Shown here one piece after another: positions 1 to 54,956 of a DNA stretch of 64,000 nt. Both the position numbers and the translations under genes were made by a program. Position 1 is the stretch's first letter, and every line of letters starts with the position of its first letter. The notes beneath the pieces are model-generated. The model was not told the origin of the DNA. It did not search any database and saw only the letters and a list, made by a program, of their open reading frames with translations. The stretch is from Desulfomicrobium sp. (lineage in GTDB: Bacteria; Desulfobacterota; Desulfovibrionia; Desulfovibrionales; Desulfomicrobiaceae), in NCBI GenBank assembly GCA_040768745.1, contig JAXGMI010000002.1, forward strand, positions 128,001 through 192,000. The letters are read 5' to 3'.

Positions 1-337
1 TTGGGGCCATGCGGCCTGCCGGGCTTGCGCACTGCGAGCAGGTTGTTCTCTCTCATGATCCGAAGCGTTCGCAGGGGGACGTTCTGATGCCCTCAAAACG
101 CAACCTGGCCCACACTTTCCGATAGCCTTCACCAGTAAAAGGGGAGTTCTGGATGCATGCCACGATGTGCCCGAACAACTCCCCATCACTGTGGAAGCCA
201 ATAGGGCCTCGGCGGCTTGGTGTGCCCTCATTCGCAACCTTGCGTGCATAATGCGTGGACCTGGGGAGATTCCAGACCCGGCAAACCAGCACCAGCCCAT
301 ACGTCTGACCAGTGGAGGGCGAGGTGGACCGGCTCAT
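1..337 (-). pseudogene. IS3-family transposase OrfB N-terminal part, frameshifted near 74-78
   Basis: GYRKVWARLR motif. The reading continues in another frame as LRTLRIMRENNLLAVRKPGRPHGP after a G5 run. Confidence 0.7.
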
Positions 338-723: not shown

Positions 724-803
724 GAATCACCTCATGGGGAGTCTCTCTACTCCCAATTTGGTGTCCAAGAAAACCCTATCCCAGAGGAAAGAACATAAAA
801 AAA

Positions 804-1316
804 AGCTGTGATTGTAAGTGTAAATTTACAAAATAAAATATGATTGACTTGATACATTGATTTTTTTTTGCAGAACATAAAACCTCCAAAATTATAAGTT
901 ATAAAAACAATTTTATTTGCTAGATTTTGGGTTATCAGTAGATGCATCCCAATCTTGGAGTTACATCTAGCCTATAGAAAAAAATGCGAGCGACAAGCCC
1001 CAGTTCTCGGGGAAATCGAAATTTCGATATTGTCCTCTAAAAATTTTGCATAATTTGTTCCAATAATTTTAGTATATTATTCTAAGTTGTTAAATGGGTT
1101 TGTGGATTAGCTGTGATTGTAAGTGTAAATTTTTCCGACAAGCTGAGTTGGATGGAGAACTCGCCTTCAAATAGACGTTGAGACCTTTTTTCTTGTGAAA
1201 GCTCAATTTCGATTTAAATAAATTAGATTCAAAATTGAAATCAGATAATTGCAGAAAATTAAAAAATTTTAAATTTGTCGGGCAGGTCATGTTTGGAAGT
1301 GTAAACTTTTCCGACA
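804..1316 (+). repeat. Dispersed direct repeats in AT-rich region
   Basis: AGCTGTGATTGTAAGTGTAAATTT is identical at 804-827 and 1109-1132. AAGTGTAAA(T/C)TTTTCCGACA occurs at 1121-1140 and 1297-1316. Confidence 0.85.
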
Positions 1317-1424
1317 CGTTTTCGAATATTATTCCATTTTGGAATGGCGAGATGCTTTAAGCTCGAATAAACGTCGAATAAAATTGGCTATAAAAAACAT
1401 AGGTCATGGTTAGAACAGCGGATA
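941..1424 (+). mobile_element. Fragmented IS1595-like remnant (or chimeric consensus)
   Basis: 985-1020 is identical (36 bp) to 42428-42463, with further colinear short matches. 1402-1424 matches the IS left end 42206-42228 at 21/23. Confidence 0.6.
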
Positions 1425-1650
1425 CATGCTGCGGAAGGGCTCACGGCAAGGTGGGGCTGCTGCCAAAGACCAGGGGCATGATGGAAGAGGTGGCGCCAGA
1501 GCGTGGGCGCAGCGGCAGGAGAGTCGCCGGCAGACGGTTTGGGAGTCCTTCCACCGGGCATGCAGCGCACCTTCAGCTGAAAAAGCGATACTGCAGTCCA
1601 TTCCCGGCGGTCCCGGCGTGGGCAGCCTTGTTGCTGCCCCGGTCAGGGAT

Positions 1651-3057
1651 TCAGAGCGAACACGTTCCAGGCTGGGTCATGCACAGCGCCGCATGCAGGG
1701 ATATCTGGGCCTGGGCGAACTGTTCCCGCTCAACCACGAATTGCATGTTGGTCTGCCTCGCGGTCTGGGACACGGCCAGGATGTTGATGTTGTCCCTGGC
1801 CAGGGCTCCGGCGGCCTTGGCCAGGATGCCGGGCTGGGCGATGTTGGAGCCGATGGCGCAGACAATGGCCACCTTGCGCAGGGTGATATGCTCGAATCTG
1901 TCGTGCAGCTCCGCGACCAGCGCATCTGTGCAGTCCCGATCGTTGATGATCATGCCGATGGTGTTGGCGTTGGTGGACTTGCTGATATAGGAAATCTGGT
2001 GTTTGGCCAAAATCTGCATGATGCGCAGATCGAATCCGACTTCACCGACCATGCGCGTGTCATGGACTTCCAGGCTGGTGACCTTGTCGGAACCGGTCAC
2101 AATCTCGACCATGGATTGCGGGGCGATGAAATCCTTGCTGATGAGGGTGCCGCCATGATCCGGGTCAAAGGCATTTTTGACCCGAATGGGAATATTGTTG
2201 ATTTCCAGCGGTTTGGATGCCTTGGGATGAATGGCCTCCATGCCCACGTCGGCCAGCTGGTCGGCCACGTCGAAGTTGGTGTTGCACAGGGGGTGGATGT
2301 TGTTTTCGCCAATGAGAACCGGATCGCCTGAACAGAGGTGGTATTCCTTGTGGATGATGGCCTCCTTGGCGCCCAGCAGCACCGCGACCTTGGAAAAGGT
2401 CACTTCCGAATAGCCCCGGTCGAATTCGCGCATGATGCCTTCGGTGCCCTTGGTGTAACCTGTGGCGAAACAGATGGTGGAAAACGGGTCTATCCCCTGG
2501 AAGCTGTCCTTGATGCGTTCGTCGATGGTCAACTGCCGGCTGTCTTCCCATCCGCTCAAGTCCACGAACGTGGCGTTGTATCCCCTGTTGCCCAGAATGT
2601 TGGCGGAATTGAACGCGCTGTGCATTTCACCCAGGGAGGCGAGCAGCTCACGCGCGGCCAGCAGCAACGCCTTGCGTGAGATGTAGCCAGAGGCCAGGAC
2701 GTTTTCCATGCTGCGCAGGATATTGATGGACTGGTCGATGTGGTCGCCGATGAAGTCATTGGCCTCGTCCAGGTTCAATCCGGCCGCCACAAAAGTCTGG
2801 TTCAGTTCGAAAAGGTGGTCGCGCAGGGTCAGCATCTTCCTGGCATAGTTTTCCTGGCTCCGAAAAAGCTGGTATATGCCTGGCTGACCTGTTTTCTTGT
2901 GTTCCAGAAGTTCGTTGGTGATCCCGCCATATGCGGAAACCACGTAAATGCGGCCATACACGTCATCCGGGCTCCGCAGGATGACGTTGTCGATGATTTC
3001 CGGGAACCGTGACATGGATGTCCCGCCGATCTTTTCGATTCTCAGAAAACCTTTCAT
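1651..3057 (-). CDS. ask: Aspartate kinase, ectoine-associated (Ask_Ect-like) type
   Basis: EKIGGTSM N-terminal motif, VVSAYGGITNELLEHKK, DRGYSE, EAIHP and C-terminal ACT domains. Start placed at MKGFLR. Confidence 0.9.
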   Translation of the reverse strand: MKGFLRIEKIGGTSMSRFPEIIDNVILRSPDDVYGRIYVVSAYGGITNELLEHKKTGQPGIYQLFRSQENYARKMLTLRDHLFELNQTFVAAGLNLDEANDFIGDHIDQSINILRSMENVLASGYISRKALLLAARELLASLGEMHSAFNSANILGNRGYNATFVDLSGWEDSRQLTIDERIKDSFQGIDPFSTICFATGYTKGTEGIMREFDRGYSEVTFSKVAVLLGAKEAIIHKEYHLCSGDPVLIGENNIHPLCNTNFDVADQLADVGMEAIHPKASKPLEINNIPIRVKNAFDPDHGGTLISKDFIAPQSMVEIVTGSDKVTSLEVHDTRMVGEVGFDLRIMQILAKHQISYISKSTNANTIGMIINDRDCTDALVAELHDRFEHITLRKVAIVCAIGSNIAQPGILAKAAGALARDNINILAVSQTARQTNMQFVVEREQFAQAQISLHAALCMTQPGTCSL

Positions 3058-3277
3058 GAGCAATCCCGATGTTCTTGAAGTTTGCCGAACGGTTACTGCG
3101 GCATATGCATATCGGCCTAGTTTTTTAGGCGATAGGTCCGAAGAAGGTGCAGCGTCAATACGTGATGAACCGGAAAATCGATTTCCATTGCCTGGTTTGG
3201 CATTGGGGCTGGCCGGTTTGACGGTCCGGACGGGTGCAGCTAGAAGGGCGAAAAACAGGCAGTTCGGCAGGTTCAGC

Positions 3278-5086
3278 ATGAAGCATCTTCTTCTTTTTCT
3301 TTTTTTTCTGTCCGCAGTTCAGCCCGCCCTGGCCGGTGGCGTGCACGCCCTGGCCATGAACGGCCAGCCCAAGTACGGCCCGGGTTTCACCCACTTCGAT
3401 TATGCAAACCCCGACGCCCCCAAGGGCGGGACCGTGCGCCTGGCGGCCACGGGCACCTTCGACAGCTTCAACCCCTTCATCGTCAAGGGCAATTCCGCCG
3501 ATGGCCTGGGTCTCCTGTTCGACACCTTGACCGAACAGTCCCTGGACGAGCCTTTCACGGAGTACGGGCTTCTGGCCGAGCGCATCGAACTGGCCCCGGA
3601 CCGGTCCTTCCTGACCTTCCAACTGCGCAAGGAGGCCCGTTTCCACGACGGCAGCCCCGTCAAGGCCGCCGACGTGGCCTTCACCTTCAGAACCCTGGTG
3701 GAGCAGGGCAACCCGCACTATGCCCAGTACTATGCCGACGTGGAGCGGGTCGAGACCAGCGGGCCCCTGACCGTGACCTTCTTTTTCAAGCCCCGGGCCA
3801 GCCAGGAGCTGCCCCTCATCCTCGGCCAACTGCCCGTCCTCCCGGAGAAATTCTGGCAGGGCCGGGATTTTTCCGTCTCGTCCCTGGACGTGCCCCTGGG
3901 CAGCGGGCCATACCGCATCGGGGAGTTCAAGGCTGGCCAGCGTCTGACCTTCGTGCGCGACCCAGGCTATTGGGGCCGCGACCTGCCCGTGAACAGGGGT
4001 CGGCACAACTTCGACACCATCGTCTACGACTACTACCGCGACCTGACGGTCACCTTGGAGGCCTTCAAGGCCGGGGAGTACGACTTCCGCCAGGAATACA
4101 ACTCCAAGCAATGGGCCACGGGCTATACTGGGCCGGCCGTGGAGCGGGGGCTGATCCGCACCGAGAACATCCCGCACAAGCTGTCCCAGGGCATGCAGTG
4201 CTTCGCCTTCAACACGCGTCGCGCCACCTTTTCTGACCCCCTGGTGCGCCGGGCCCTGAACCACGCCTTCGATTTCGAGTGGAGCAACAAGAACCTCTTC
4301 TACGGCCAGTACGCGCGCTCCACGAGCTTCTTCTCCAATTCCGACATGGCCTCTTCCGGCGCGCCGACGCCCGAAGAGAAGACCATCCTTGAATCCCTGG
4401 GCCTGCCCGCAGAGGTTTCCACACAGGCTTTCAGCCTGCCCGCCACCGACGGCAGCGGCAACATCCGCGACAACCTGCGCATTGCCGCGGAACTGCTCCG
4501 GCAGGCGGGTTGGGTCGTGCAGAGCGGGAAGCTCACGAAGGACGGGCAGCCCTTTGTCTTCGAGATGCTTCTGGTGCAGCCGGACTTCGAGCGCGTGGTC
4601 CTGCCCTTCCAGCGTAACCTGGCGCGCCTGGGCATCACCATGAGCGTGCGCATGGTCGACACGTCGCAATATCTGGAACGCCTGCGGGGCTTCGACTTCG
4701 ACATGATCGTGACCAGCTTCCCCCAGTCCCTGTCCCCGGGCAACGAGCAGCGCTCCTTCTGGCACTCGGCCTCGGCCGACATGCCCGGATCGCGCAACTA
4801 CTGCGGCATCAAGAATCCGGCCATAGACCGGCTTGTGGATCTGGTCATCGCCGCCCCGGACCGCGAGAGGCTGATTTTGCGCTGCAAAGCCCTGGACCGG
4901 GCCCTGCTGTGGGGCTGGTATGTCATCCCCCACTGGCACTCCACGTCCTGGCGCGTGGCCTACTGGGACAAGTTTGGGCTGCCGGGAAAGCTGGCCGACT
5001 ACGGGCTCGATTTCCAGTCCTGGTGGGTCGACCCGCAGAAGGAGAGGGAACTGGAGGGGAAAAGGAAGGGCGCGGGGCTGAAGTAG
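3278..5086 (+). CDS. yejA: Peptide/microcin C-type ABC transporter substrate-binding protein
   Basis: Signal peptide, [44 protein letters not shown]. Confidence 0.9.
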
Positions 5087-42204: not shown

Positions 42205-42939
42205 GGGTCATGACTAGAACAGCGGATAACAAATCTGCTAGGATCGAGTCATGGCAAGGGTTAATAAGTACGCAAATCGTTCAAAAATTTCAGAGGCCAA
42301 ATTCAGGCAATTCTTGAAGCTCTTTTCCTTTGATCTGGATGCATCCCAGATCGCCCTGGTGACTGGCCTAAACAGAAATACCGTGAACAGGTATCTCATG
42401 GCCTTGCGCCAACGAATCGCTGAGTACTGCGAGCGACAAGCCCCAGTTCTCGGGGAAATCGAAGTTGATGAAAGCTACTTCGGGCCTCGCCGAGTCAAAG
42501 GACTCCGAGGTCGTGGCGCAAGCAGTAAAACCATTGTGTTTGGCATCTTCAAGCGCCAAGGCCAAGTCTATACCGAGATCGTGCCTGATTGCAGCCGTGC
42601 CACACTTCAGGCGGTTATCCGAGGTCGAGTCAGCGTCGAAAGCGTCATCCATTCCGATGGATGGCGCGGCTATAACGGCCTGGTGGATATAGGGTACCAG
42701 AAGCATTTCAGGGTCAACCACGGAGACAATGAATTTGCCAATGAACGTAGCCATATCAATGGCATAGAAAGCTTTTGGGGCTATTCGAAAACTCGCCTTG
42801 CCAAGTTCAGAGGTGTCAGCAAGGTAACCTTTTTCTTGCATTTGAAAGATGCGAATTTCGATTTAACAATAGGGGCCAGAACATCTATAAAGTCCTGCTC
42901 AAAATCATCAGGACAAACCCGCTGTTCTAGTCATGACCC
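42205..42939 (+). mobile_element. IS1595-family element (IS1016-like), 735 bp
   Basis: Perfect 21-bp IR GGGTCATGACTAGAACAGCGG; 8-bp TSD AAAATAAT at 42197-42204 and 42940-42947. Confidence 0.95.
42251..42930 (+). pseudogene. IS1595 transposase with -1 bp frameshift near 42848
   Basis: EVDESYFG, HSDGW and HINGIESFW are present. The expected KECEFRFN...PLF* lies in a shifted frame, and the called ORF runs out past the IR. Confidence 0.8.
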
Positions 42940-43052
42940 AAAATAATTTAGTCCATGACTCTGATTTCGTCCACAATATCTTGCAGAGAAAAAATATCGG
43001 ACCTGCCCAGGGGCTGGCTGGAGTGGAAGGCCCTTGATGTTCACATCTTGGA

Positions 43053-45009
43053 CAGGAGTTTCGAAAGTTTCTGGCCAAATGAATCGATTATCTCCAACAA
43101 TACAGCATATAGCTTTTGATTTTCTGTAAGACCCCACGCTCGACTTCATAGCCGAACGCAGCCAGGACCCTGGCCTGATCCGGCGTTGGCTCCTCGATCA
43201 TCCGCCATGCCTTTTCCTTCTCTCCGTTCCAGCACAGGCACGAATGCAGATTACGCATGAGGTCCATGGTCCGCTGCGCGGTCATATGGATGCCGGCGTC
43301 TTCCAGCTTCAGCTCGATCAGGCGCAGATAGGCCAAGGCTACGATGCAGCTCAGGAAATGGCACCTGATTTTCGAATCGGTCCAGTGCCGTATCGGGAAC
43401 ATGCTGACCAGGTCATCGTCCTTGGTCTGACGGAACGCCTGTTCCACGATGTATCTGTCCAGGCTGGCCTGGACGATCTCGTCCGTGCTCCAATCGGCGT
43501 GGTCGGTAATGAGGATGTTCTTGCCGAACCTGTCGATATGCCGGCTGATGCGGTAGTAGTTCTTGCGGAAACCCAGGATGGTCTGCCCGTCCTTGCGTTC
43601 AAAGGTCAGGTCGTACAGGTCCTTGGGCAGATGCAGGTCTTCGCAAACCTGTTCATACCGTTCCCGCACCTTGGCTTCCTGTCTCCAGCCCCGGGCATCC
43701 TCCCGGACCTTGCCCCGGATTTCGTACAGCGCGGCCTGGAGCTTTTGCAGCTTGGCTTCGAAGGCATATCGCTGCTTGGTCGCCGTGAGCGGGTTGTACG
43801 TCACGACGACGGTGCGTTCCCGGCCCCAGTATTCTCCGGTCGTGCGCCAGGCCGACAGGAGATCGTCCTCGCGGCCCTGGGCCTTGAGTTCCCGGTTGTG
43901 TACAGTCTCGACGGCCGAGAACTGGTCACGTCCGGCATGAATGAGTTCTTCGGCGAAATATGGGGAATACGTGGTGATGAAGTGGGCGCCGTCCGTGGCG
44001 TCAATGGCGCAGATGTTCTCCGGAGAGTTCATGCCCTTGTCGAAGACGATGGTCACGTCCTTTTGTCCGCAACCCTGCATTGTCGCGCAAACTTCGTCGA
44101 TGATCGACTGGAACAAGCGTGAATCATGTCGGTTGCCTTCGTATTCGCGGTAAAAGAACGGCAGCCGGGTTTGCCTGTCGACCAGCAGGGCCAGCCCGAC
44201 CTGCCTGGGCCAGTCCCGTCCTTCCTTGTTCTTGCCGCGTTTGGCCAGTTCCGACTCGGTATCGCTGGCCATGAACGTGAAGTAGTTGGTGGTGTCGAAC
44301 AGGAAGCATCCCGAGGTCGAAGGCCGCAGTTCCGCAATCCTGGCAAAGAGCTTCTGGGCGATGTCGCGCAGATGCTTCTCCTCCACCAATCCCCATTTGC
44401 GCCAATAGCCATCTGAATCCAGCGCCTGGATATCGGCGGCTCGAATGGACTGGATGGCCGTATGGGCGAACCATTCCGGCAGCGCCCGTTTGGACGTGGC
44501 GTCGACCATGCGGTTGAAGGCGGCGTAGAGAAAGTACTCACCGACGCTTGGCCCGGAATCCTTGGATTTCTGCGGGACGATCCCGTCAATGATCCCGGTC
44601 ACGCCGACCATCTTTTCGATCTCGTTTGCCAGCCACAACGCGCCGAACTCCTGGACCTGAATGCGACTCAGGTCCGTAGACTTCTGCCCAGTGACCAGGC
44701 TGAGAATCTTTTCCACTGTGCCGAGGTAGACCTGATTCACAACCTTGGGCTTGCCGTTCACACGGGCAATCTCGCGGATGTAGAAGTAGGGTCTTCCGTT
44801 TTTCATTTTCTTATGGAGGTGCGCCATGTCTCGGCCATACCATAAGGGTCTTATACATGCAATAAAAATCGTTCTTTTTTGGTGAAAAATCAGCAAGTTG
44901 TGTCGTGGAAAAACGGGAAAAGAAGAGGGTCTTACAGCAAATATAAAGATAATAGCCTGGAATTATGAAGAAAATAGACAAGGTTCAGGAGAATTTTTCG
45001 AAACTCCTG
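43053..45009 (-). mobile_element. IS1634-family element
   Basis: IR (GA)CAGGAGTTTCGAAA at 43051-43066 and TTTCGAAACTCCTG(TC) at 44996-45011. Symmetric internal IR GGGTCTTACAG about 71 bp inside each end. Exact ends are +/-2 bp. Confidence 0.85.
43088..44827 (-). CDS. IS1634-family DDE transposase
   Basis: LFDTTNY, RGKNKEGR, YEGNRHD, VFDKGM, VEQAFR, PIRHWTDSKIRCH. Confidence 0.9.
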   Translation of the reverse strand: MAHLHKKMKNGRPYFYIREIARVNGKPKVVNQVYLGTVEKILSLVTGQKSTDLSRIQVQEFGALWLANEIEKMVGVTGIIDGIVPQKSKDSGPSVGEYFLYAAFNRMVDATSKRALPEWFAHTAIQSIRAADIQALDSDGYWRKWGLVEEKHLRDIAQKLFARIAELRPSTSGCFLFDTTNYFTFMASDTESELAKRGKNKEGRDWPRQVGLALLVDRQTRLPFFYREYEGNRHDSRLFQSIIDEVCATMQGCGQKDVTIVFDKGMNSPENICAIDATDGAHFITTYSPYFAEELIHAGRDQFSAVETVHNRELKAQGREDDLLSAWRTTGEYWGRERTVVVTYNPLTATKQRYAFEAKLQKLQAALYEIRGKVREDARGWRQEAKVRERYEQVCEDLHLPKDLYDLTFERKDGQTILGFRKNYYRISRHIDRFGKNILITDHADWSTDEIVQASLDRYIVEQAFRQTKDDDLVSMFPIRHWTDSKIRCHFLSCIVALAYLRLIELKLEDAGIHMTAQRTMDLMRNLHSCLCWNGEKEKAWRMIEEPTPDQARVLAAFGYEVERGVLQKIKSYMLYCWR

Positions 45010-45507
45010 TCAGATCATCCCCGTTTTCTGCAGGGCCTTGGCTGCAAACAGCCCGCCCACGGCCCCGCCCACGGCCTGGATCAGGTTGGCCGGGATCTCG
45101 GCCACGGCACCCTGCAGTCCGATGTTGGGCATCAGCGTTTCCCCAATGAAATACACGGCCACCATGGCCGTCCCTCCGAGGCCCAGCAGCATGTAACGTC
45201 CAGTTCCGGTTCTGTTGGCGGCCATGGCCGCTGCAGCTGCTTCCGCGCCCTTGGCCATGAGGGTCAGGGGGGCGAAGACAGCGAAGCCGCCAAAGACGTC
45301 GGCCAGGGCTGAGCCGATGCCGGCCGCGCCAAAGGCCCACAGGATGCCCTGGCGCGGCTGCAGGAATCCCAGCACCAGACCGCCGAAGACCACCGCCACG
45401 TCCCCGACGTTAAAATACCCGCGGCTGGGCAGTGGCACGCGCACAAAGAGGGTGATCAGGCAGGTAAGGGCTACGATGGACAGGGCTGCGATGCGGATAT
45501 TCTTCAT
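45010..45507 (-). CDS. ECF transporter S component
   Basis: VPLPSRGYFNVGD, GIGSALAD...FAPLTLMAKG, EIPANLIQ; about 5-6 TM helices; GAGGA RBS. Confidence 0.85.
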   Translation of the reverse strand: MKNIRIAALSIVALTCLITLFVRVPLPSRGYFNVGDVAVVFGGLVLGFLQPRQGILWAFGAAGIGSALADVFGGFAVFAPLTLMAKGAEAAAAAMAANRTGTGRYMLLGLGGTAMVAVYFIGETLMPNIGLQGAVAEIPANLIQAVGGAVGGLFAAKALQKTGMI

Positions 45508-46100
45508 TGCTGTTTCCTCACATACGAACGTCGATGCTCTATGAGCGTCACGGTTTTTTCGGTTTCCCGGTACAGGCTGATGTACGCGGCCACAATGACC
45601 CCGCCTAGCCGCTGCAGCTTGGCCCAGCGCCTGCCTTCGAAATGAGGGGAAAGGTCCATGAAAAAGCGGTGCCGGTGCAGGACGGGAGTACATTTTTCCA
45701 TGACCGCCTTCAAGACGATGGCCAGGCGTCGTACCCTGTTGGGCAGGGGCAGGATGACAATGTCACGGAAAGTGATGGCCTGCAGGCAAAGCTTCACGGC
45801 CAGGACGGAATTGGGAAAGACCAAGGCCTTGATCAGGGAGTCCGCCAGCCAGTCCGATCGGCCCAAGAGTCCCATCCACTGGAAGAGGGCGCCGAAGGCC
45901 AGGAGAGAGAGGACAAAGGGCAGGACAAAACCGAAAACCTGCCGCGTGCCCTTTATTCCCCCCTTGAATGTGTTGATAACCAACAGTCCGATCAGCAACG
46001 CGGCTTGGATGTCGATGTGTTCATACCAGGGGCCATAGACCAGAAGCCTGAAATAGAGGCCCAGCGCAAGGAGGATGGCCGCGAGCTTGAGGACTACCAT
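45504..46100 (-). CDS. Divergent ECF transmembrane (EcfT/CbiQ-like) component
   Basis: N-terminal TM helices, then two amphipathic helices ending IEHRR, compared with the EcfT xRx motif. Position within the operon supports the call. Confidence 0.6.
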   Translation of the reverse strand: MVVLKLAAILLALGLYFRLLVYGPWYEHIDIQAALLIGLLVINTFKGGIKGTRQVFGFVLPFVLSLLAFGALFQWMGLLGRSDWLADSLIKALVFPNSVLAVKLCLQAITFRDIVILPLPNRVRRLAIVLKAVMEKCTPVLHRHRFFMDLSPHFEGRRWAKLQRLGGVIVAAYISLYRETEKTVTLIEHRRSYVRKQQ

Positions 46101-46609
46101 GCCTGCTCCAGGCGCACGTCCACGTCAGGGCCCGCGTTTGTGCGTTCGAAAAGGAGCCGGAACCCTCGCCTGTGCTGCGTCCTGGGCCGGGTTTCGCACA
46201 GGTGGGAAACTTTCACCACCCAGGAAAAGTCGAGCCGGTCCAAGGTCTCTCTCTGCTCTGGACGCAGGTATTTCTCGAATTCATCGAGAATGAGTGTGTC
46301 CCGGCTTGGGCAGGCCTGAATCCAGGCCAGGGCTAGGCTGGTGATGCCGACTGGAACCTCCTGTCCCAGCAGGGCCAGGGTCGCGGCCATGGTGTGGCGC
46401 TGCAGATCCATGTCCTGGGCCAGGTAGAGGATCCGGTGTGTGGATCGTGCTGACGGAATGAGCACGCGTTCCAAAAAAGTGCTCTTTCCTGCCCCGTTTT
46501 CACCGCACAGCACGAGCAGCGATCCGGAAGCCAGAGCCAGAGGTGCGGTCAGGTGGAAGCGCAGCCCGGCGTTTGCTGCTTCATGGATGCCTGCGGGAAG
46601 CTCAAGCAT
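46094..46609 (-). CDS. Truncated ABC ATPase: Walker A, Q-loop, Walker B and H-switch without signature
   Basis: GENGAGKST, YLAQD, LILDE, VSH; only 171 aa; no LSGG-like motif. Confidence 0.75.
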   Translation of the reverse strand: MLELPAGIHEAANAGLRFHLTAPLALASGSLLVLCGENGAGKSTFLERVLIPSARSTHRILYLAQDMDLQRHTMAATLALLGQEVPVGITSLALAWIQACPSRDTLILDEFEKYLRPEQRETLDRLDFSWVVKVSHLCETRPRTQHRRGFRLLFERTNAGPDVDVRLEQAW

Positions 46610-46997
46610 GGATGGCCCTTGGTCCGCTGGGTGTGAGGGTGAAAAGAGTGGCCGCCGGAAGCATGGTCGCGAATTTCAGGAGCAGGAGCTCTCGGTTCTT
46701 CGGGGACAGGGTTTCCAGCACACGGACCAGCATGATCTGCAGTGGATCCCGGGGCAGCAGGCGCATGAGCAGCAGGCAGCACAGTATGGCCTGTTCTCCC
46801 CCGGAGTAGGAATCGAGCCTGCGCCCGCGATCCGGCACAAAGCCGAAAGAAAGCGCATCGGTTTTCAGGTCCGCAAAAAGAGCATCTCCGGCTCCAAGGA
46901 CCAGGATCTCGTCTTCCAGGGTGGCGCAGACAAACAGGCTGTGGATGTCGATGACGCAGTATCCGGCGCCGAATTCCGCGATGGTGTCGTGAGTCAT
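46602..46997 (-). CDS. EcfA-derived helical-subdomain/signature protein lacking Walker A
   Basis: LFVCATLEDEI (cf. EcfA QLFxxTVEEEV), LDSYSGGEQ signature, LSPKNRELL (D-loop-like). Start may be 47006 or 47012. Confidence 0.65.
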   Translation of the reverse strand: MTHDTIAEFGAGYCVIDIHSLFVCATLEDEILVLGAGDALFADLKTDALSFGFVPDRGRRLDSYSGGEQAILCCLLLMRLLPRDPLQIMLVRVLETLSPKNRELLLLKFATMLPAATLFTLTPSGPRAIHA

Positions 46998-47065
46998 GCC
47001 GGGCATGTGCACTGCGTCCTGGTTGTGCTTGACGGGCTGAAAAAGGGATGCAAAAGACCTAGGCC

Positions 47066-47488
47066 ATGATCAAATACAGTGTCGAATGCTGGCTTTACAA
47101 CCCCCTGACCGACCGTTTTCTGCTCCTGCGCTGTCCCCAGACCTACCGCCATGACGAGTACTGGCAACCCGTGACCGGAGGGCGCGGTCCCGGAGAGCCC
47201 TGCATCGAGGCCTGCCTTCGGGAAGTGCAGGAGGAAACAGGGTTTGCCCTGGTTCCTGAGCAGTTGGAAGTGGTTATCCCCGAATTCACCTTCTGCATTC
47301 CCGATGCCCGCATCGAACTGCACAAGCCCGTCTATCTGGCCCGGGTCACAACCGAGCACGTGGTCATTTCCCCGGAGCATATCGCCTACTACTGGTTTGA
47401 CGCCGACCAGGTGGAGTCCCGTCTGCATTGGGATTCCAACCGGGAATCTTTTCGTCAGGTCCTGAACTATTCCCGCCTGCCTTGCTGA
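47066..47488 (+). CDS. NUDIX hydrolase (NudB-like)
   Basis: LLLR...WQPVTGG...GE...ACLREVQEETG, ISPEH..Y.W, SNR. Confidence 0.85.
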   Translation: MIKYSVECWLYNPLTDRFLLLRCPQTYRHDEYWQPVTGGRGPGEPCIEACLREVQEETGFALVPEQLEVVIPEFTFCIPDARIELHKPVYLARVTTEHVVISPEHIAYYWFDADQVESRLHWDSNRESFRQVLNYSRLPC

Positions 47489-49547: not shown

Positions 49548-49806
49548 GTCATTCATCCGTTGGGGGCTGGTGCGTACTGATTGTTTACTCATTTTGTCCG
49601 GATCGCGCAATGCGTCTCCCGTACCCGGAAACGATCGGGGCGCACGGGTGGACCAAAAGCGCGGGTTGGGCTAGACTGGTAGTCTGCTGGAAGGAATCGT
49701 CATCTTATCCCGGCAGCGCCGCAGCCCCCTCCACGCCTTTGCATCATGCTCCCTTCCGCCGGCTACGGGCGTGGAACCCGTTCACCACAATCCCTGTGAG
49801 GTTGCA

Positions 49807-51597
49807 ATGAACCTGGACAGTTCACGATGGTGCGCGCGCACCTTCATCGCGGAACACGCCGGCGTCTTCGACGTGGTCAGGACCGCCCCCGACCTCGACG
49901 CGGCGCGCAAGGCGCTCTATCTTTTCGTGACCGAGCGTCAGTATCTGATCCTCTTCGACGACCGCCAGCACAACTCCTTCGAGATGACGGTGGCCCGGGA
50001 CTGCGCCCGCGTCCTGCGCGCGGTTCTGGCCAGAGGCTCCGACGCCCGGGCCGGCTTCAGCGTGGCCCAGACCCTGTGGGACCTGGCCCGCGGCGTGGAG
50101 CGCGCGGACCTGACGGTCGGCTTTTTCGCCGAGCTGTCGCACCTTTTCCACGGCCTGAACGGCACGCCCCTGGATGTAACCCCCGAACCCTCGGACCGGG
50201 ACGGGGTCAGCGGGCGCGAGGCCGCCGTGGCCAGGTCCCTTGAACTCGACCGCATCTGGGAGGGTATCGAGCAGGCCATGGCGCGCTACGAATCGGGCCT
50301 TGAACCGGCCTCCATGGACCGGCGCAGGCAGCGCAGGCAGGAGCTCCAGGCCCTGCTCGGGGCATCGGACCGCGAGTGGGAGGACTGGCGCTGGCAGGTG
50401 CGCAACATCATTGAGGACGCCGACGGCCTGGCTGCGGCCGTCAACCTGCGCGATGACGAGCGGGCCGCCGTAACGCAGGCGGTCCGGACGAAGCAGCCTT
50501 TCGGGATCACACCGTATTACTCCTCCCTCATGGACAACGACCCCGAAACCGGCCGCGACCGGGCCGTACGCTCCCAGGTCATCCCGCCGGTCTCCTACGT
50601 GAAGTGCATGGCCGCCCACGGCGACAGCCGGTCCGAGGCCTTCGACTTCATGCGCGAGGCCGACACGTCGCCCATTGATCTCGTCACGCGGCGCTACCCA
50701 GCAATCGTCATCCTCAAGCCCTTCAACACCTGTCCGCAGATCTGCGTCTACTGCCAGCGCAACTGGGAGATCGAGCGGGCCATGGCGCCGGGGGCCATGG
50801 CGTCCCGGGCCGACCTGGAGAGCGCCGTGGAGTGGGTCAGACGGCACCCGGCCATCAAGGAGGTCCTGGTCACGGGCGGCGACCCCCTGGCCATGGGCGA
50901 CGGTCCCCTGGATCGCATCCTGAAAAGCGTCGCGGACATCCCCCACGTGGAGCTCATCCGCATCGGCACGCGTACGCCCGTGACCCTGCCCATGCGCATC
51001 ACGCCGGGGCTGGCCCGCATGCTCGGCTCCTTCCGCGAGCCCGGGGTGCGCGACGTCTGCCTGGTCACCCACGTGGAGCATGTTTCGGAAGTGACGCCGG
51101 AATTCGTGACCGCCGTGGACAGGCTCAAACGGCAGGGCGTGAGCGTCTACAACCAGCTCGTCTTCACGTTTCACGTCTCCCGGCGCTTCGAGGCCGCGGC
51201 CCTGCGGCGGCTCCTGCGCAGATGCGGGGTGGAGCCCTATTACACCTTCGCGCCCAAGGGCAAGGAGGAGACGGAAGACTACCGCGTGCCCATCGCCCGC
51301 ATTCTGCAGGAGCAGCAGGAGGAGGCGCGCCTGCTGCCGGGCATGCGCCGCACCGACGCGCCCGTCTTCAACGTGCCGGGCCTGGGCAAGAACCACCTGC
51401 GCGCCGCCCAGAACCGCGACGTGGTGTCCATCCTGCCCGACGGCTCGCGGGTCTACGAGTTCCACCCGTGGGAGAAGAACATCGTCGAGCGCGACTCCTA
51501 CGTCGGTCAGGACGTGCCGATACTGACGTATCTTGAGCGCCTGGCCGCCATCGGTGAGGATCCGGACGAGTATTCGAGCATCTGGTACTATTATTAG
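49807..51597 (+). CDS. KamA-family radical SAM protein (lysine 2,3-aminomutase-like), long form
   Basis: WEDWRWQ, ITPYY, CPQICVYCQR, LVTGGDPL, RIGTRTP, PYY, PGLGK. Confidence 0.88.
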   Translation: MNLDSSRWCARTFIAEHAGVFDVVRTAPDLDAARKALYLFVTERQYLILFDDRQHNSFEMTVARDCARVLRAVLARGSDARAGFSVAQTLWDLARGVERADLTVGFFAELSHLFHGLNGTPLDVTPEPSDRDGVSGREAAVARSLELDRIWEGIEQAMARYESGLEPASMDRRRQRRQELQALLGASDREWEDWRWQVRNIIEDADGLAAAVNLRDDERAAVTQAVRTKQPFGITPYYSSLMDNDPETGRDRAVRSQVIPPVSYVKCMAAHGDSRSEAFDFMREADTSPIDLVTRRYPAIVILKPFNTCPQICVYCQRNWEIERAMAPGAMASRADLESAVEWVRRHPAIKEVLVTGGDPLAMGDGPLDRILKSVADIPHVELIRIGTRTPVTLPMRITPGLARMLGSFREPGVRDVCLVTHVEHVSEVTPEFVTAVDRLKRQGVSVYNQLVFTFHVSRRFEAAALRRLLRRCGVEPYYTFAPKGKEETEDYRVPIARILQEQQEEARLLPGMRRTDAPVFNVPGLGKNHLRAAQNRDVVSILPDGSRVYEFHPWEKNIVERDSYVGQDVPILTYLERLAAIGEDPDEYSSIWYYY

Positions 51598-52868: not shown

Positions 52869-54956
52869 CTACACAATCTCATCCTGGATCCTGCTGTCGA
52901 AAACCCGCTGGCTCTTGCGTTCCGAGCGGGGCAGGCTGCCGTAGTCCACGATCTCGATGTCTGCCGTGACCAGCAGTTGCCGCTTGATCTGGTGCCCGGC
53001 CTCGTGGATCAGCTCGGGAGTGCGGCTTGCCTGCACGCCCTGGGCCCGCTCCACCACCAGGCGCATGTGTTCCCGGCCACTGCTGTCCCGGGTCAGATGG
53101 ATCTGGTACTCGGATCCCATGCCCGGCACAGACGAAAGAATGGTATCCACCGAACTGGGATAGATGTTCACCCCCCGGAACTTGATGGTGTCGTCGGAAC
53201 GGCCCCGGATGCGCGAGTGTTTGGGCATGAGGCTTCCGCACGTGCAGGGGCCGGGGATGATGCGGGTGATGTCCCGGGTGCGGTAGCGGATGAGGGGAGA
53301 CCCTTCCTTGCACAGGGAAGTGACCACCATTTCCCCCCATTCCCCGTCGGGCAGGGGTTGCAGGGTGTCCGGATCGAGGATCTCCAGCAGGTAGTAGTCC
53401 CCCCAGTAATGGATGCAATCGTGGTCAGGGCATTCTATGCCTGCCCCGGGACCGTAGAGTTCGGTCAGGCCGGTGATGTCGAAGAGTTCTGCCCCGCCGA
53501 AGAGCTCGGAAATTTTCCTGCGCATGCTGCGGCTGGAACGCTCGGATCCATAGATGATCTTCCGCACGGCGATCTTGTCGGCAACTCCGCGTTTGTGGAT
53601 CTCTTCGGCCATGAGCAGGGCCATGGAGGCCGTGGAGCAGAACACTGTGGATTGGAAGTCGAGCAGAAACTGGATCTGCATGTCGATGTTGCCTGGACCC
53701 ACAGGCACGGACAGAGCCCCGATTTTTTCGCATCCGAGTTGGAAGCCCATACCCGCTGTCCACACCCCATAGCCCACGGCCACCTGGACCCGGTCCAGGA
53801 CCGTGACCCCGGCCATTTGATAGCACCGGGCGAACATGTCGGTCCAGTCGTCCAGGTCCTTCTGGGTGTAGCAGAGAACCTTGCGCTTGCCCGTGGTCCC
53901 GGAACTGGCGTGGACGCGCACGAGCTGTTCGAAGGGCACGCTGCGCAGGGGAAAGGGATATCCGTCCCGGAGGTCCTCGGTGGTGGTGAAGGGCAGGCGC
54001 TGCAGGTCCTCCAGGGTGTGGATGGAATCAGGCCTGATACCGGCGGCATCGAGCTTGGCGCGGTAGGCCGAAGAGCCTTCATAGGCGTGTCGGACTGTCC
54101 ATTGCAGGCCCTGAATTTGGTGGGCACGCAGATCCTCGGCAGTTTTGAAGGTGGGCAGGAAGTTTTTGTTGTGCATTGCGGGTTTCTCCAGACGGATATT
54201 GGTCAGGCCGGCCGCCCCCAGGCGGCTGGAAGCGGGATTGTCGTGACTGGCCGCGCCCAGGAAGGCTGCGCGCAGGGTCGGATCAATGAGCAGGTCGCGG
54301 CTTTTGCCGTGCTCGACGATCCTTCCTCCGGCCAGCAGATAGGCCGTGTCCGAGGCCGAAAGGGCCCTGGCCGCGTTCTGCTCGACAATGAGGATGGTCG
54401 CCCCAGCCCGGCCCAGTTGATGGATGATGGAAAAAATTTCATCGGTGATGAGCGGGGCCAGGCCCAGGCTCGGTTCGTCCAGGAGGAGCAGCCGGGGATG
54501 GGCCATCAGCGCCCGGCCCATGGCCAGCATCTGCTGCTCGCCTCCGGACAGGGTCCCTGCCGTCTGTTGGCGCCGGTCCCTGAGTTTGGGGAAGCGGCCA
54601 AAGACCTCCTCCACGCGCCGGGCCTCTTCGGCCGAGGGCAGTTTCAGGGGAATGGCCCCGAGGCGCAGGTTGTCCAGAACAGACAGGGTGCCGAACACCT
54701 CCCGCCCCTCGGGCGAAAGGGCCAAGCCGGACTGGACCATGCGGGCCGGGGGCGCACCGGTCACGGCCGTGCCGTCCAGCAGAATCTCGCCGCCAGATGG
54801 CTTGACCAGGCCCATGAGACATTTGAGCAGGGTGCTCTTGCCCGCCCCGTTGGCTCCGACCAGGGCCACGGTTTCCCCGGCCCGCACCTCCATGTCGATG
54901 CCGAATAGGGCCTGGGCCGCACCGTAATGGGCTGTAAGGTTTCGTATGCTCAGCAT
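52869..54956 (-). CDS. Fusion of LivF-type ABC ATPase and phenylacetate-CoA ligase (PaaK-like)
   Basis: N-terminus has GANGAGKST, LSGGEQQM and LDEPSLGLAP. C-terminus (52869-54176) has HASSGTTGK, GLTE, PLIRYRTRD, GRSDD and RGVNIYP. There is no stop between them. Confidence 0.85.
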   Translation of the reverse strand: MLSIRNLTAHYGAAQALFGIDMEVRAGETVALVGANGAGKSTLLKCLMGLVKPSGGEILLDGTAVTGAPPARMVQSGLALSPEGREVFGTLSVLDNLRLGAIPLKLPSAEEARRVEEVFGRFPKLRDRRQQTAGTLSGGEQQMLAMGRALMAHPRLLLLDEPSLGLAPLITDEIFSIIHQLGRAGATILIVEQNAARALSASDTAYLLAGGRIVEHGKSRDLLIDPTLRAAFLGAASHDNPASSRLGAAGLTNIRLEKPAMHNKNFLPTFKTAEDLRAHQIQGLQWTVRHAYEGSSAYRAKLDAAGIRPDSIHTLEDLQRLPFTTTEDLRDGYPFPLRSVPFEQLVRVHASSGTTGKRKVLCYTQKDLDDWTDMFARCYQMAGVTVLDRVQVAVGYGVWTAGMGFQLGCEKIGALSVPVGPGNIDMQIQFLLDFQSTVFCSTASMALLMAEEIHKRGVADKIAVRKIIYGSERSSRSMRRKISELFGGAELFDITGLTELYGPGAGIECPDHDCIHYWGDYYLLEILDPDTLQPLPDGEWGEMVVTSLCKEGSPLIRYRTRDITRIIPGPCTCGSLMPKHSRIRGRSDDTIKFRGVNIYPSSVDTILSSVPGMGSEYQIHLTRDSSGREHMRLVVERAQGVQASRTPELIHEAGHQIKRQLLVTADIEIVDYGSLPRSERKSQRVFDSRIQDEIV

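Follow-up and report, generated by a model that had tools for sequence, protein, structure and literature searches.

Can two genes that each encode only part of an ABC ATPase together provide the motor of an ECF-type importer? The question is raised by a locus in a 64,000-nucleotide stretch of Desulfomicrobium sp. DNA (hereafter the window), in which four overlapping genes were found on the minus strand. We refer to the two ATPase-like genes as SIG (the signature half) and WA (the Walker half), and they are followed by a T-like gene and an S gene:

46602..46997, minus strand: SIG, 131 amino acids from an ATG; EcfA1 4huq_B matched with E 2.9e-5
46094..46609, minus strand: WA, 171 amino acids, ABC-ATPase core; PF00005 matched with 26 bits
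45504..46100, minus strand: T-like membrane protein (T), 198 amino acids; EcfT 5d3m_D matched with Z 7.2, a value below the tool's bar for helical proteins
45010..45507, minus strand: ECF S component (S), HmpT/PdxU2-like, 165 amino acids; PF07155 matched with E 1.5e-18

A previous interpretation made from the letters alone (the sequence-only reading) had taken SIG and WA for intact overlapping genes that also overlap the T-like and S genes. Both reading frames were indeed intact, and the overlaps amount to 8 nt for SIG/WA, 7 nt for WA/T and 4 nt for T/S. SIG may alternatively start at a GTG at 47012, giving 136 amino acids, where the ribosome-binding site looks better than at the ATG. As had been pointed out, the signature gene comes first, so the pair is not one ATPase split by a frameshift. 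The same four frames in the order SIG-WA-T-S recurred in 91 of 129 pooled loci (duplicates included), and the arrangement of the reading frames is therefore not due to chance. We consider that the operon probably (roughly three chances in four) encodes an ECF-type importer in which two ATPases have been cut to complementary halves that share a single ATP site. Each of the four genes is single-copy in the window genome.

The surroundings of the operon in the window were also inspected. A NUDIX hydrolase gene (47066-47488, plus strand) is divergent from SIG at a distance of 68 nt; it occupies this position in 19 of 52 other non-redundant loci, each of which belongs to the family-like clade. Directly downstream of S lie an IS1595-family transposase (42251-42946, plus strand) and a DDE transposase (43088-44896, minus strand). 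Farther away, a 608-residue radical SAM protein with a long N-terminal extension, which by eye we take to be KamA-like, is encoded at 49771-51597 on the plus strand. A 695-residue ORF at 52869-54956 on the minus strand joins an ABC ATPase (19-163) to an AMP-binding, phenylacetate-CoA-ligase-like domain (341-689) and has a binding-protein gene downstream.

For the conservation analysis, the 91 complete operons were reduced to 53 at less than 90% similarity and to 52 after one with a cut S gene had been dropped. The operon was detected in Thermodesulfobacteriota, Cloacimonadota and Moduliflexota. Within the genus SIG was detected in 23 of 24 genomes, and within the family in 29 of 34, one of these 29 being false (G026, a weak match with E 3e-4 and no operon, which was dropped); it was absent from all 26 genomes of other families in the order. 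The four-gene synteny, for which a search in other genomes had been proposed, was recovered in 18 of 20 family loci, the remaining two showing SIG-WA-T with S on another contig, and none of the genes. The former is G032, a 97% complete genome in which SIG-WA-T (L026, 3315-4827) and S (L041) are both intact.

Scanning genomes with the S alignment gave 80 loci. Among the best 28 of these, 26 had all four genes, one was cut by a contig end and one had S alone; the four-gene carriers included Desulforhopalus, several Cloacimonadota and Ca. Moduliflexus. SIG, WA and T were all absent from the other 52 genome loci, where S was at most 44% identical. The operon is present in a cultured named strain, Desulforhopalus vacuolatus DSM 9700 (L094). 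All four genes were found in 54 of 80 metagenome loci; among the 44 whose upstream sequence reaches 2.2 kb or more, 42 had them. In a sample of 400 genomes of the same phylum no SIG gene was seen among the 150 matches listed (a further 107 being unlisted), which were weak (E 2e-7 or worse) and in frames of at least 221 amino acids, and the spread of the system is therefore patchy. In the S-gene tree, which was midpoint-rooted, the operon-linked S genes formed one supported branch relative to eight outgroup rows.

When the SIG profile was compared with 50%-identity representatives of all lengths, 49 matches were obtained, nearly all of 56-204 amino acids. The long ones were an SMC fragment, a 1691-residue protein (six partial matches) and P0082, a 267-residue join of SIG and WA on one contig in which both frames are left mid-way; the latter looks like a frameshift error and was rejected. 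Some loci carried parts of the operon, and the linkage thus has exceptions, as in G032. In L166, L167 and L176, T and S (about 2700-4000 in L167 and L176) occur with neither SIG nor WA nearby and lie behind an SppA-like gene, and S was found alone in L082 and L178. As a separate observation, a second ECF module with two short ATPases (217-231 amino acids) was found in Cloacimonadota (L234, L235, L236), and the signatures of both deviate (LSAGW/LSAGE and MSTGE/LSPGW).

SIG corresponds to a fragment of an ABC ATPase that begins near the Q-loop strand and reaches the H-loop strand. The EcfA-like segment LFVCATLEDEI, the YSGGEQ signature and the D-loop-like segment attributed to it by the sequence-only reading were all located, the last as VLETLS at the Walker B/D-loop position. 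Two of its features are needed for the argument below:

46791..46808, minus strand: ABC signature YSGGEQ of SIG (residues 64-69); S65 in 52/52, G66 in 50/52 and G67 in 52/52 operons
46908..46910, minus strand: SIG Glu30, aligned with the acidic EcfA residue that binds an X-R-X arginine of EcfT; acidic in 52/52

Across the 52 operons the D-loop reads L, I or V followed mostly by S or D, and the Q-helix glutamine is absent while the downstream LFV..T..E-E segment is kept. The reported lack of Walker A and of an acidic Walker B extends to the whole family: the P-loop pattern was absent from all 91 SIG stop-to-stop frames, and a Walker B DE occurred in 0 of 52, a Q-loop glutamine in one and a switch-region histidine in three.

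SIG matched no Pfam or NCBIfam family. A profile of 50 SIG proteins matched residues 91-197 of L. brevis EcfA1 (E 2.9e-5) as well as the signature halves of SMC/Rad50. In a profile comparison with ten canonical ECF-linked ATPases, SIG matched with 97% probability (E 6.5e-11). The AlphaFold model had a pLDDT of 96, and the 50 matches listed in a fold search with it were all ABC ATPases, with CbiO at the top (Z only 8.7, rmsd 3.7, 121 residues aligned); in Foldseek, EcfA chains were leading. SIG is thus predicted to have an ABC fold closest to CbiO/EcfA; the lack of such a fold had been singled out as a point on which the proposal could fail. The first SIG profile also gave TAL-effector matches, but these were summed chance hits on repeats and were gone with the wider profile.

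WA is the reverse case. It carries Walker A (GENGAGKST, residues 36-44), Q-loop (YLAQD, 62-66), Walker B (LILDE, 106-110) and H-switch (VSH, 134-136), all at the motifs named previously:

46478..46504, minus strand: Walker A GENGAGKST of WA; G36, N38, G39, G41 and K42 each in 52/52
46280..46294, minus strand: Walker B LILDE of WA; D109 and E110 each in 52/52
46202..46204, minus strand: H-switch His136 of WA; 52/52

Additionally, the Q-loop residue Q65 was found in 51 of 52 and an A-loop Tyr, His or Phe in 48 of 52. None of the 91 WA proteins contained the signature pattern, and the D-loop is degenerate. WA barely reached the cut-offs of ABC_tran (PF00005) and AAA_22, and its best PDB and Pfam matches were ABC-F proteins and AAA_22 instead of EcfA, which counts against the proposed importer. 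WA had been described as having no helical subdomain signature; the signature is absent indeed, and as a refinement a stub of the subdomain is retained, consisting of the first helix and the Q-helix residue Gln70 (50/52). The Q-helix of ECF ATPases is reported as X-P-D/E-X-Q-hydrophobic (PMC6828968), and of this motif only the Gln at +5 is kept in WA, again in 50 of 52. The distance from Q-loop to Walker B is 43-62 residues in WA versus 77 in canonical ECF ATPases, a value obtained from the 7 of 10 on which the pattern worked, and the deletion takes out the signature helix. The WA profile matched the ten canonical ECF-linked ATPases with 98% probability, and the SIG and WA profiles did not match each other.

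T is the candidate for the coupling subunit. In its model (pLDDT 83) four hydrophobic membrane-type helices are followed by two long C-terminal coupling-type helices. One putative docking residue can be placed in it:

45531..45533, minus strand: T Arg190, in the register of the second X-R-X arginine of EcfT, an ungapped register read by eye; R in 49 and K in 3 of 52

Arg190 is followed by 8 residues before the chain ends, and EcfT's last membrane helix therefore appears to be missing. The first X-R-X motif is replaced by x-x-Pro, with no R or K at 150-152 in any of 52 sequences and with R or K in 10 of 52 in the wider window 148-153. Full-length matches in the fold search were EcfT 5d3m_D (Z 7.2 at rmsd 8.2, 183 aligned, under the threshold that the tool sets for helical folds) and CbiQ (Z 6.2, rmsd 5.9, 183 aligned); almost all remaining matches cover one helix pair. 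Foldseek gave a TM of 0.54 (E 1.8) with 8bms_C, and the nearest named Atlas cluster was CbiQ at 0.87. By sequence, hhalign of T with EcfT gave E 0.035, and at best 23% probability with E 1.8e-4, and no significant match was obtained with one or eight EcfT sequences. T matched no Pfam or NCBIfam family and no EcfT sequence in the PDB, and PF02361 was unmatched in 25 T members. The T-like label has weaker evidence behind it than the sequence-only reading had implied; T is a likely coupling subunit, and the fold search, Foldseek, the Atlas and hhalign all lean towards EcfT/CbiQ, weakly or below significance.

In EcfA, an acidic residue located in the helical subdomain's first helix binds an X-R-X arginine of EcfT (PMC6828968). 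SIG keeps this acid as Glu30, and an acid at WA positions 74-80 was found in only 4 of 52. One anchor pair between T and the ATPases (SIG Glu30/T Arg190) may accordingly have been kept and the other lost on both sides. The signals for docking polarity conflict: in the L. delbrueckii ECF transporter coupling helix 2 binds EcfA and helix 3 binds EcfA' (PMC10368641; PMC4820897), and the best PDB match of SIG is EcfA1 (helix 2) while the surviving arginine of T is on helix 3.

WA kept the Walker, A, Q and H elements, and SIG kept the signature. The D-loop, of which SIG retains a segment, also acts across the ABC dimer. In an ABC dimer one subunit contributes the Walker motifs along with the A, Q and H loops, and its partner contributes the signature (PMC3971661); from the complementarity of motifs we infer a single composite ATP site. 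Mg-ATP would bind to WA, which would provide the cis elements, namely A-loop, P-loop, Q-loop, Glu110 and His136, and SIG would cover the gamma-phosphate with its SGG signature and its D-loop segment. The ancestral dimer's other site would have been deleted from both sides: no second site would be possible, because the P-loop lobe is deleted in SIG and the signature helix in WA. The two proteins are expected to dock on T through its two coupling helices, with the putative ionic pair of SIG Glu30 and T Arg190 as one anchor; the other would have lost its acid in WA and its arginine in T. As the site closes and opens, the coupling helices would be bent and the S component thereby reset. Both halves are without C-terminal dimerisation helices, which counts against this mechanism.

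Another possibility is that WA works as a signature-independent ATPase, alone or as a homodimer, with SIG as a non-catalytic adaptor that holds T. The best Pfam match of WA is AAA_22, and its nearest named clusters in the Atlas were small AAA/ABC-like proteins; the T-docking acid retained by SIG would also suit an adaptor. However, an adaptor role gives no reason why S65 and G67 are invariant at 12-28% identity, and WA has neither the D-loop nor the signature, both of which a homodimer would need in trans. We regard this explanation as unlikely.

SIG and WA could also each have as partner a full-length ABC ATPase from another locus, such as CbiO, and the working motor would then extend beyond the operon. 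A CbiQ-family match was present in all six operon-bearing genomes searched. In the window genome this is the only CbiQ-family module, of CbiM type and located elsewhere, and its own CbiO-like ATPase gene adjoins it. On the other hand, wherever SIG is encoded WA is too, and vice versa, and their losses are complementary; correlations of 0.80-0.90 were obtained between the four genes' pairwise distances (kin being not independent). The T of ECF transporters offers two docking helices for ATPases (PMC10368641), which also argues against an outside partner, and we think it quite improbable that one is involved.

The S component matched PF07155 with 67.8 bits (cut-off 26.7), and its sole significant PDB match was L. 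brevis 4hzu_S (E 5.3e-9), which we take to be HmpT/PdxU2. For that protein pyridoxamine has been reported as ligand, with Glu41, His84, Gln87, Tyr120, Asn140 and Gln143 in the pocket (PMC4860826). The aligned positions of S are D36, K86, E89, Y119, N141 and Q144, each in 52 of 52, so that three are identical (Y119, N141, Q144) and three are changed (D36, K86, E89). A B6 vitamer or an HMP/thiamine precursor is, by a modest preference, the substrate we would expect.

The genomic context leans to thiamine, with vitamin-uptake settings in two lineages. In Desulforhopalus a TPP riboswitch and a gene for a binding protein come before the operon, and genes for an ABC permease and an ATPase come after it. 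In loci of a metagenome clade, the operon is preceded by an NMT1/THI5 gene (L170, L215, L220, L226), or its back-to-back neighbour is a cytosine/purine/thiamine permease gene (L182, L209) or a TPP element (L182, L212). A PF08543 kinase gene is downstream in the Cloacimonadota-like locus L154. A TPP element was found in 4 of 37 loci outside the window that were scanned with Rfam, and no Rfam riboswitch was found upstream in the Desulfomicrobiaceae or Cloacimonadota loci among those scanned; most other loci, and the window, had no comparable clue to the substrate in their context. Additional observations were made in Desulforhopalus, where the four genes sit between the binding-protein and permease genes of the TPP-riboswitch ABC operon (L094, 1198-8443, and L091) and are accompanied by a gene for a Vut_1 vitamin transporter in the opposite orientation. 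The S gene shows a loose grouping with the copies of Cloacimonadota and Moduliflexota, and the operon looks like an inserted cassette.

These contexts bear on a further alternative, in which S would bind the vitamin in an ECF-derived sensor or facilitator and the single-site ATPase would be a switch instead of a motor. T apparently has neither the last membrane helix nor one of the X-R-X motifs, and S-component folds in receptors are reportedly the subject of a published paper (PMC11109136). No signalling or regulatory gene is conserved beside the operon, however, and together with the vitamin-uptake settings of two lineages this makes a sensor very unlikely.

As to whether the short genes are maintained, relatives with the operon keep the short forms and not full-length EcfA, with lengths of 122-154 amino acids for SIG and 161-206 for WA. 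The lowest identity across the 52 operons was 12% for SIG and 18% for WA, and the catalytic residues still hold. The dN/dS values (Nei-Gojobori, 142 pairs with dS 0.1-1.5 in all four genes) had medians of 0.31 for SIG, 0.29 for WA, 0.20 for T and 0.15 for S, where the pairs lack independence, dS approaches saturation and values of up to 1.1 occur in individual pairs. The values near 1 that pseudogenes would give were thus not seen in the medians, and with dN/dS of about 0.3 and invariant catalytic residues at 12-18% identity pseudogenes are excluded. The RNA-library contigs of a single study had a depth of 3-7 over S and over T's 3' part and left SIG and WA uncovered; such contigs cannot show transcription, and the gap proves nothing. 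That SIG and WA are decaying remnants of a normal ecfA pair hardly deserves any credence, since the dN/dS of both above that of S, the single pairs at 0.8-1.1 and the uninformative low-depth RNA contigs are set against short lengths and invariant catalytic residues in three phyla and the presence of SIG in 23 of 24 genomes of the genus.

A possible origin of the two complementary halves was found in archaeal outgroup loci. Three related loci (L099, L100, L111), which have the nearest outgroup S genes, about 38-44% identical, contain full-length ecfA1-ecfA2-ecfT-S at about 800-4470, and one ATP site of these modules is apparently degenerate. In all three, A1 has an intact LSGG[QE]K signature and the switch His changed to Arg, and A2 has P-loop, DE and His intact and L[RS]LG[ED]RR in place of the signature. 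The SIG profile scored A1 higher than A2 (22/15/11 versus 8/8/7 bits), and the WA profile A2 higher than A1 (27/19/19 versus 13/10/10). The archaeal modules share with the operon a related S, the gene order, a first ATPase with the signature only and a catalytic second one, so that gene order and polarity of degeneration of A1/A2 match SIG/WA. They differ in that both ATPases are 283-289 amino acids long and contain P-loops and Walker B, both Arg motifs are present in T, and S is fused behind a PKD domain. This lopsided full-length module is likely the precursor state, and the four-gene system likely descends from a full-length ecfA1-ecfA2-ecfT-S with one degenerate site; the descent is an inference because it draws on three related loci and no rooted ATPase tree.

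It is somewhat more plausible than the contrary that the operon represents the smallest natural ABC transport motor, with two incomplete NBD proteins, exactly one ATP site and a one-anchor T, as the end point of a path from two sites via a full-length degenerate pair to deletion. The number of ATPs per ABC/ECF cycle and the role of the second site are still open (PMC3971661), and since degenerate sites often still bind nucleotide, the answer on the second site is clouded. A natural ECF transporter with its second site removed would, if true, make the question testable in a system of four proteins and 665 residues. Three protein families that are now hypothetical would also gain names. The architecture had been called unfamiliar among described ECF systems, and in the full texts searched, which cover the literature in part, no ECF or ABC system came to light in which separate genes encode two domains with reciprocal deletions; supplementary operon lists could mention one.

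Compared with canonical ECF transporters (L. brevis 4HZU, L. delbrueckii ECF-FolT2), the operon has the four-gene composition and order in common, and it shares a PF07155 S component, the resemblance of SIG to EcfA1 91-197, the T-docking acid and one X-R-X arginine. It differs in total ATPase length (302 amino acids versus about 560, neither half being complete), in having one predicted site instead of two and in its T of 198 amino acids with one Arg motif. Of the features of group I ECF transporters, an S component is present and is encoded with a dedicated module (91 of 129 loci), whereas two complete ATPases with two sites and two X-R-X motifs were not found; the system would work like a group I ECF importer, but because these two defining features are lacking, we do not file it as a canonical group I ECF transporter. 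In the L. delbrueckii ECF transporter a Glu-to-Gln change of either single catalytic glutamate is reported to abolish ATPase activity and transport (PMC10368641), so that both are needed there; this counts against a single-site importer and argues that the loss of the second site would not have been trivial.

The SIG profile also matches the C-terminal signature head half of SMC/Rad50. SMC halves, however, split Walker A from signature and Walker B within one domain, whereas SIG and WA are two separate degenerate domains and not one split domain, because WA has both Walker A and Walker B and SIG is without an acidic Walker B. ABC motors with one consensus site have been reported in the fused ATPases RbsA/NupO (PMC11466899) and in heterodimeric exporters of the TM287/288 type, which have one degenerate site (PMC3971661). 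As proposed for SIG and WA, their catalytic site combines one domain's Walker motifs with the other domain's signature. Their degenerate site arose by point changes in full-size domains, and that of TM287/288 can still bind nucleotide. One-site ABC motors are thus known already with full-size domains, and what would be new in this operon is the truncated, reciprocally deleted pair.
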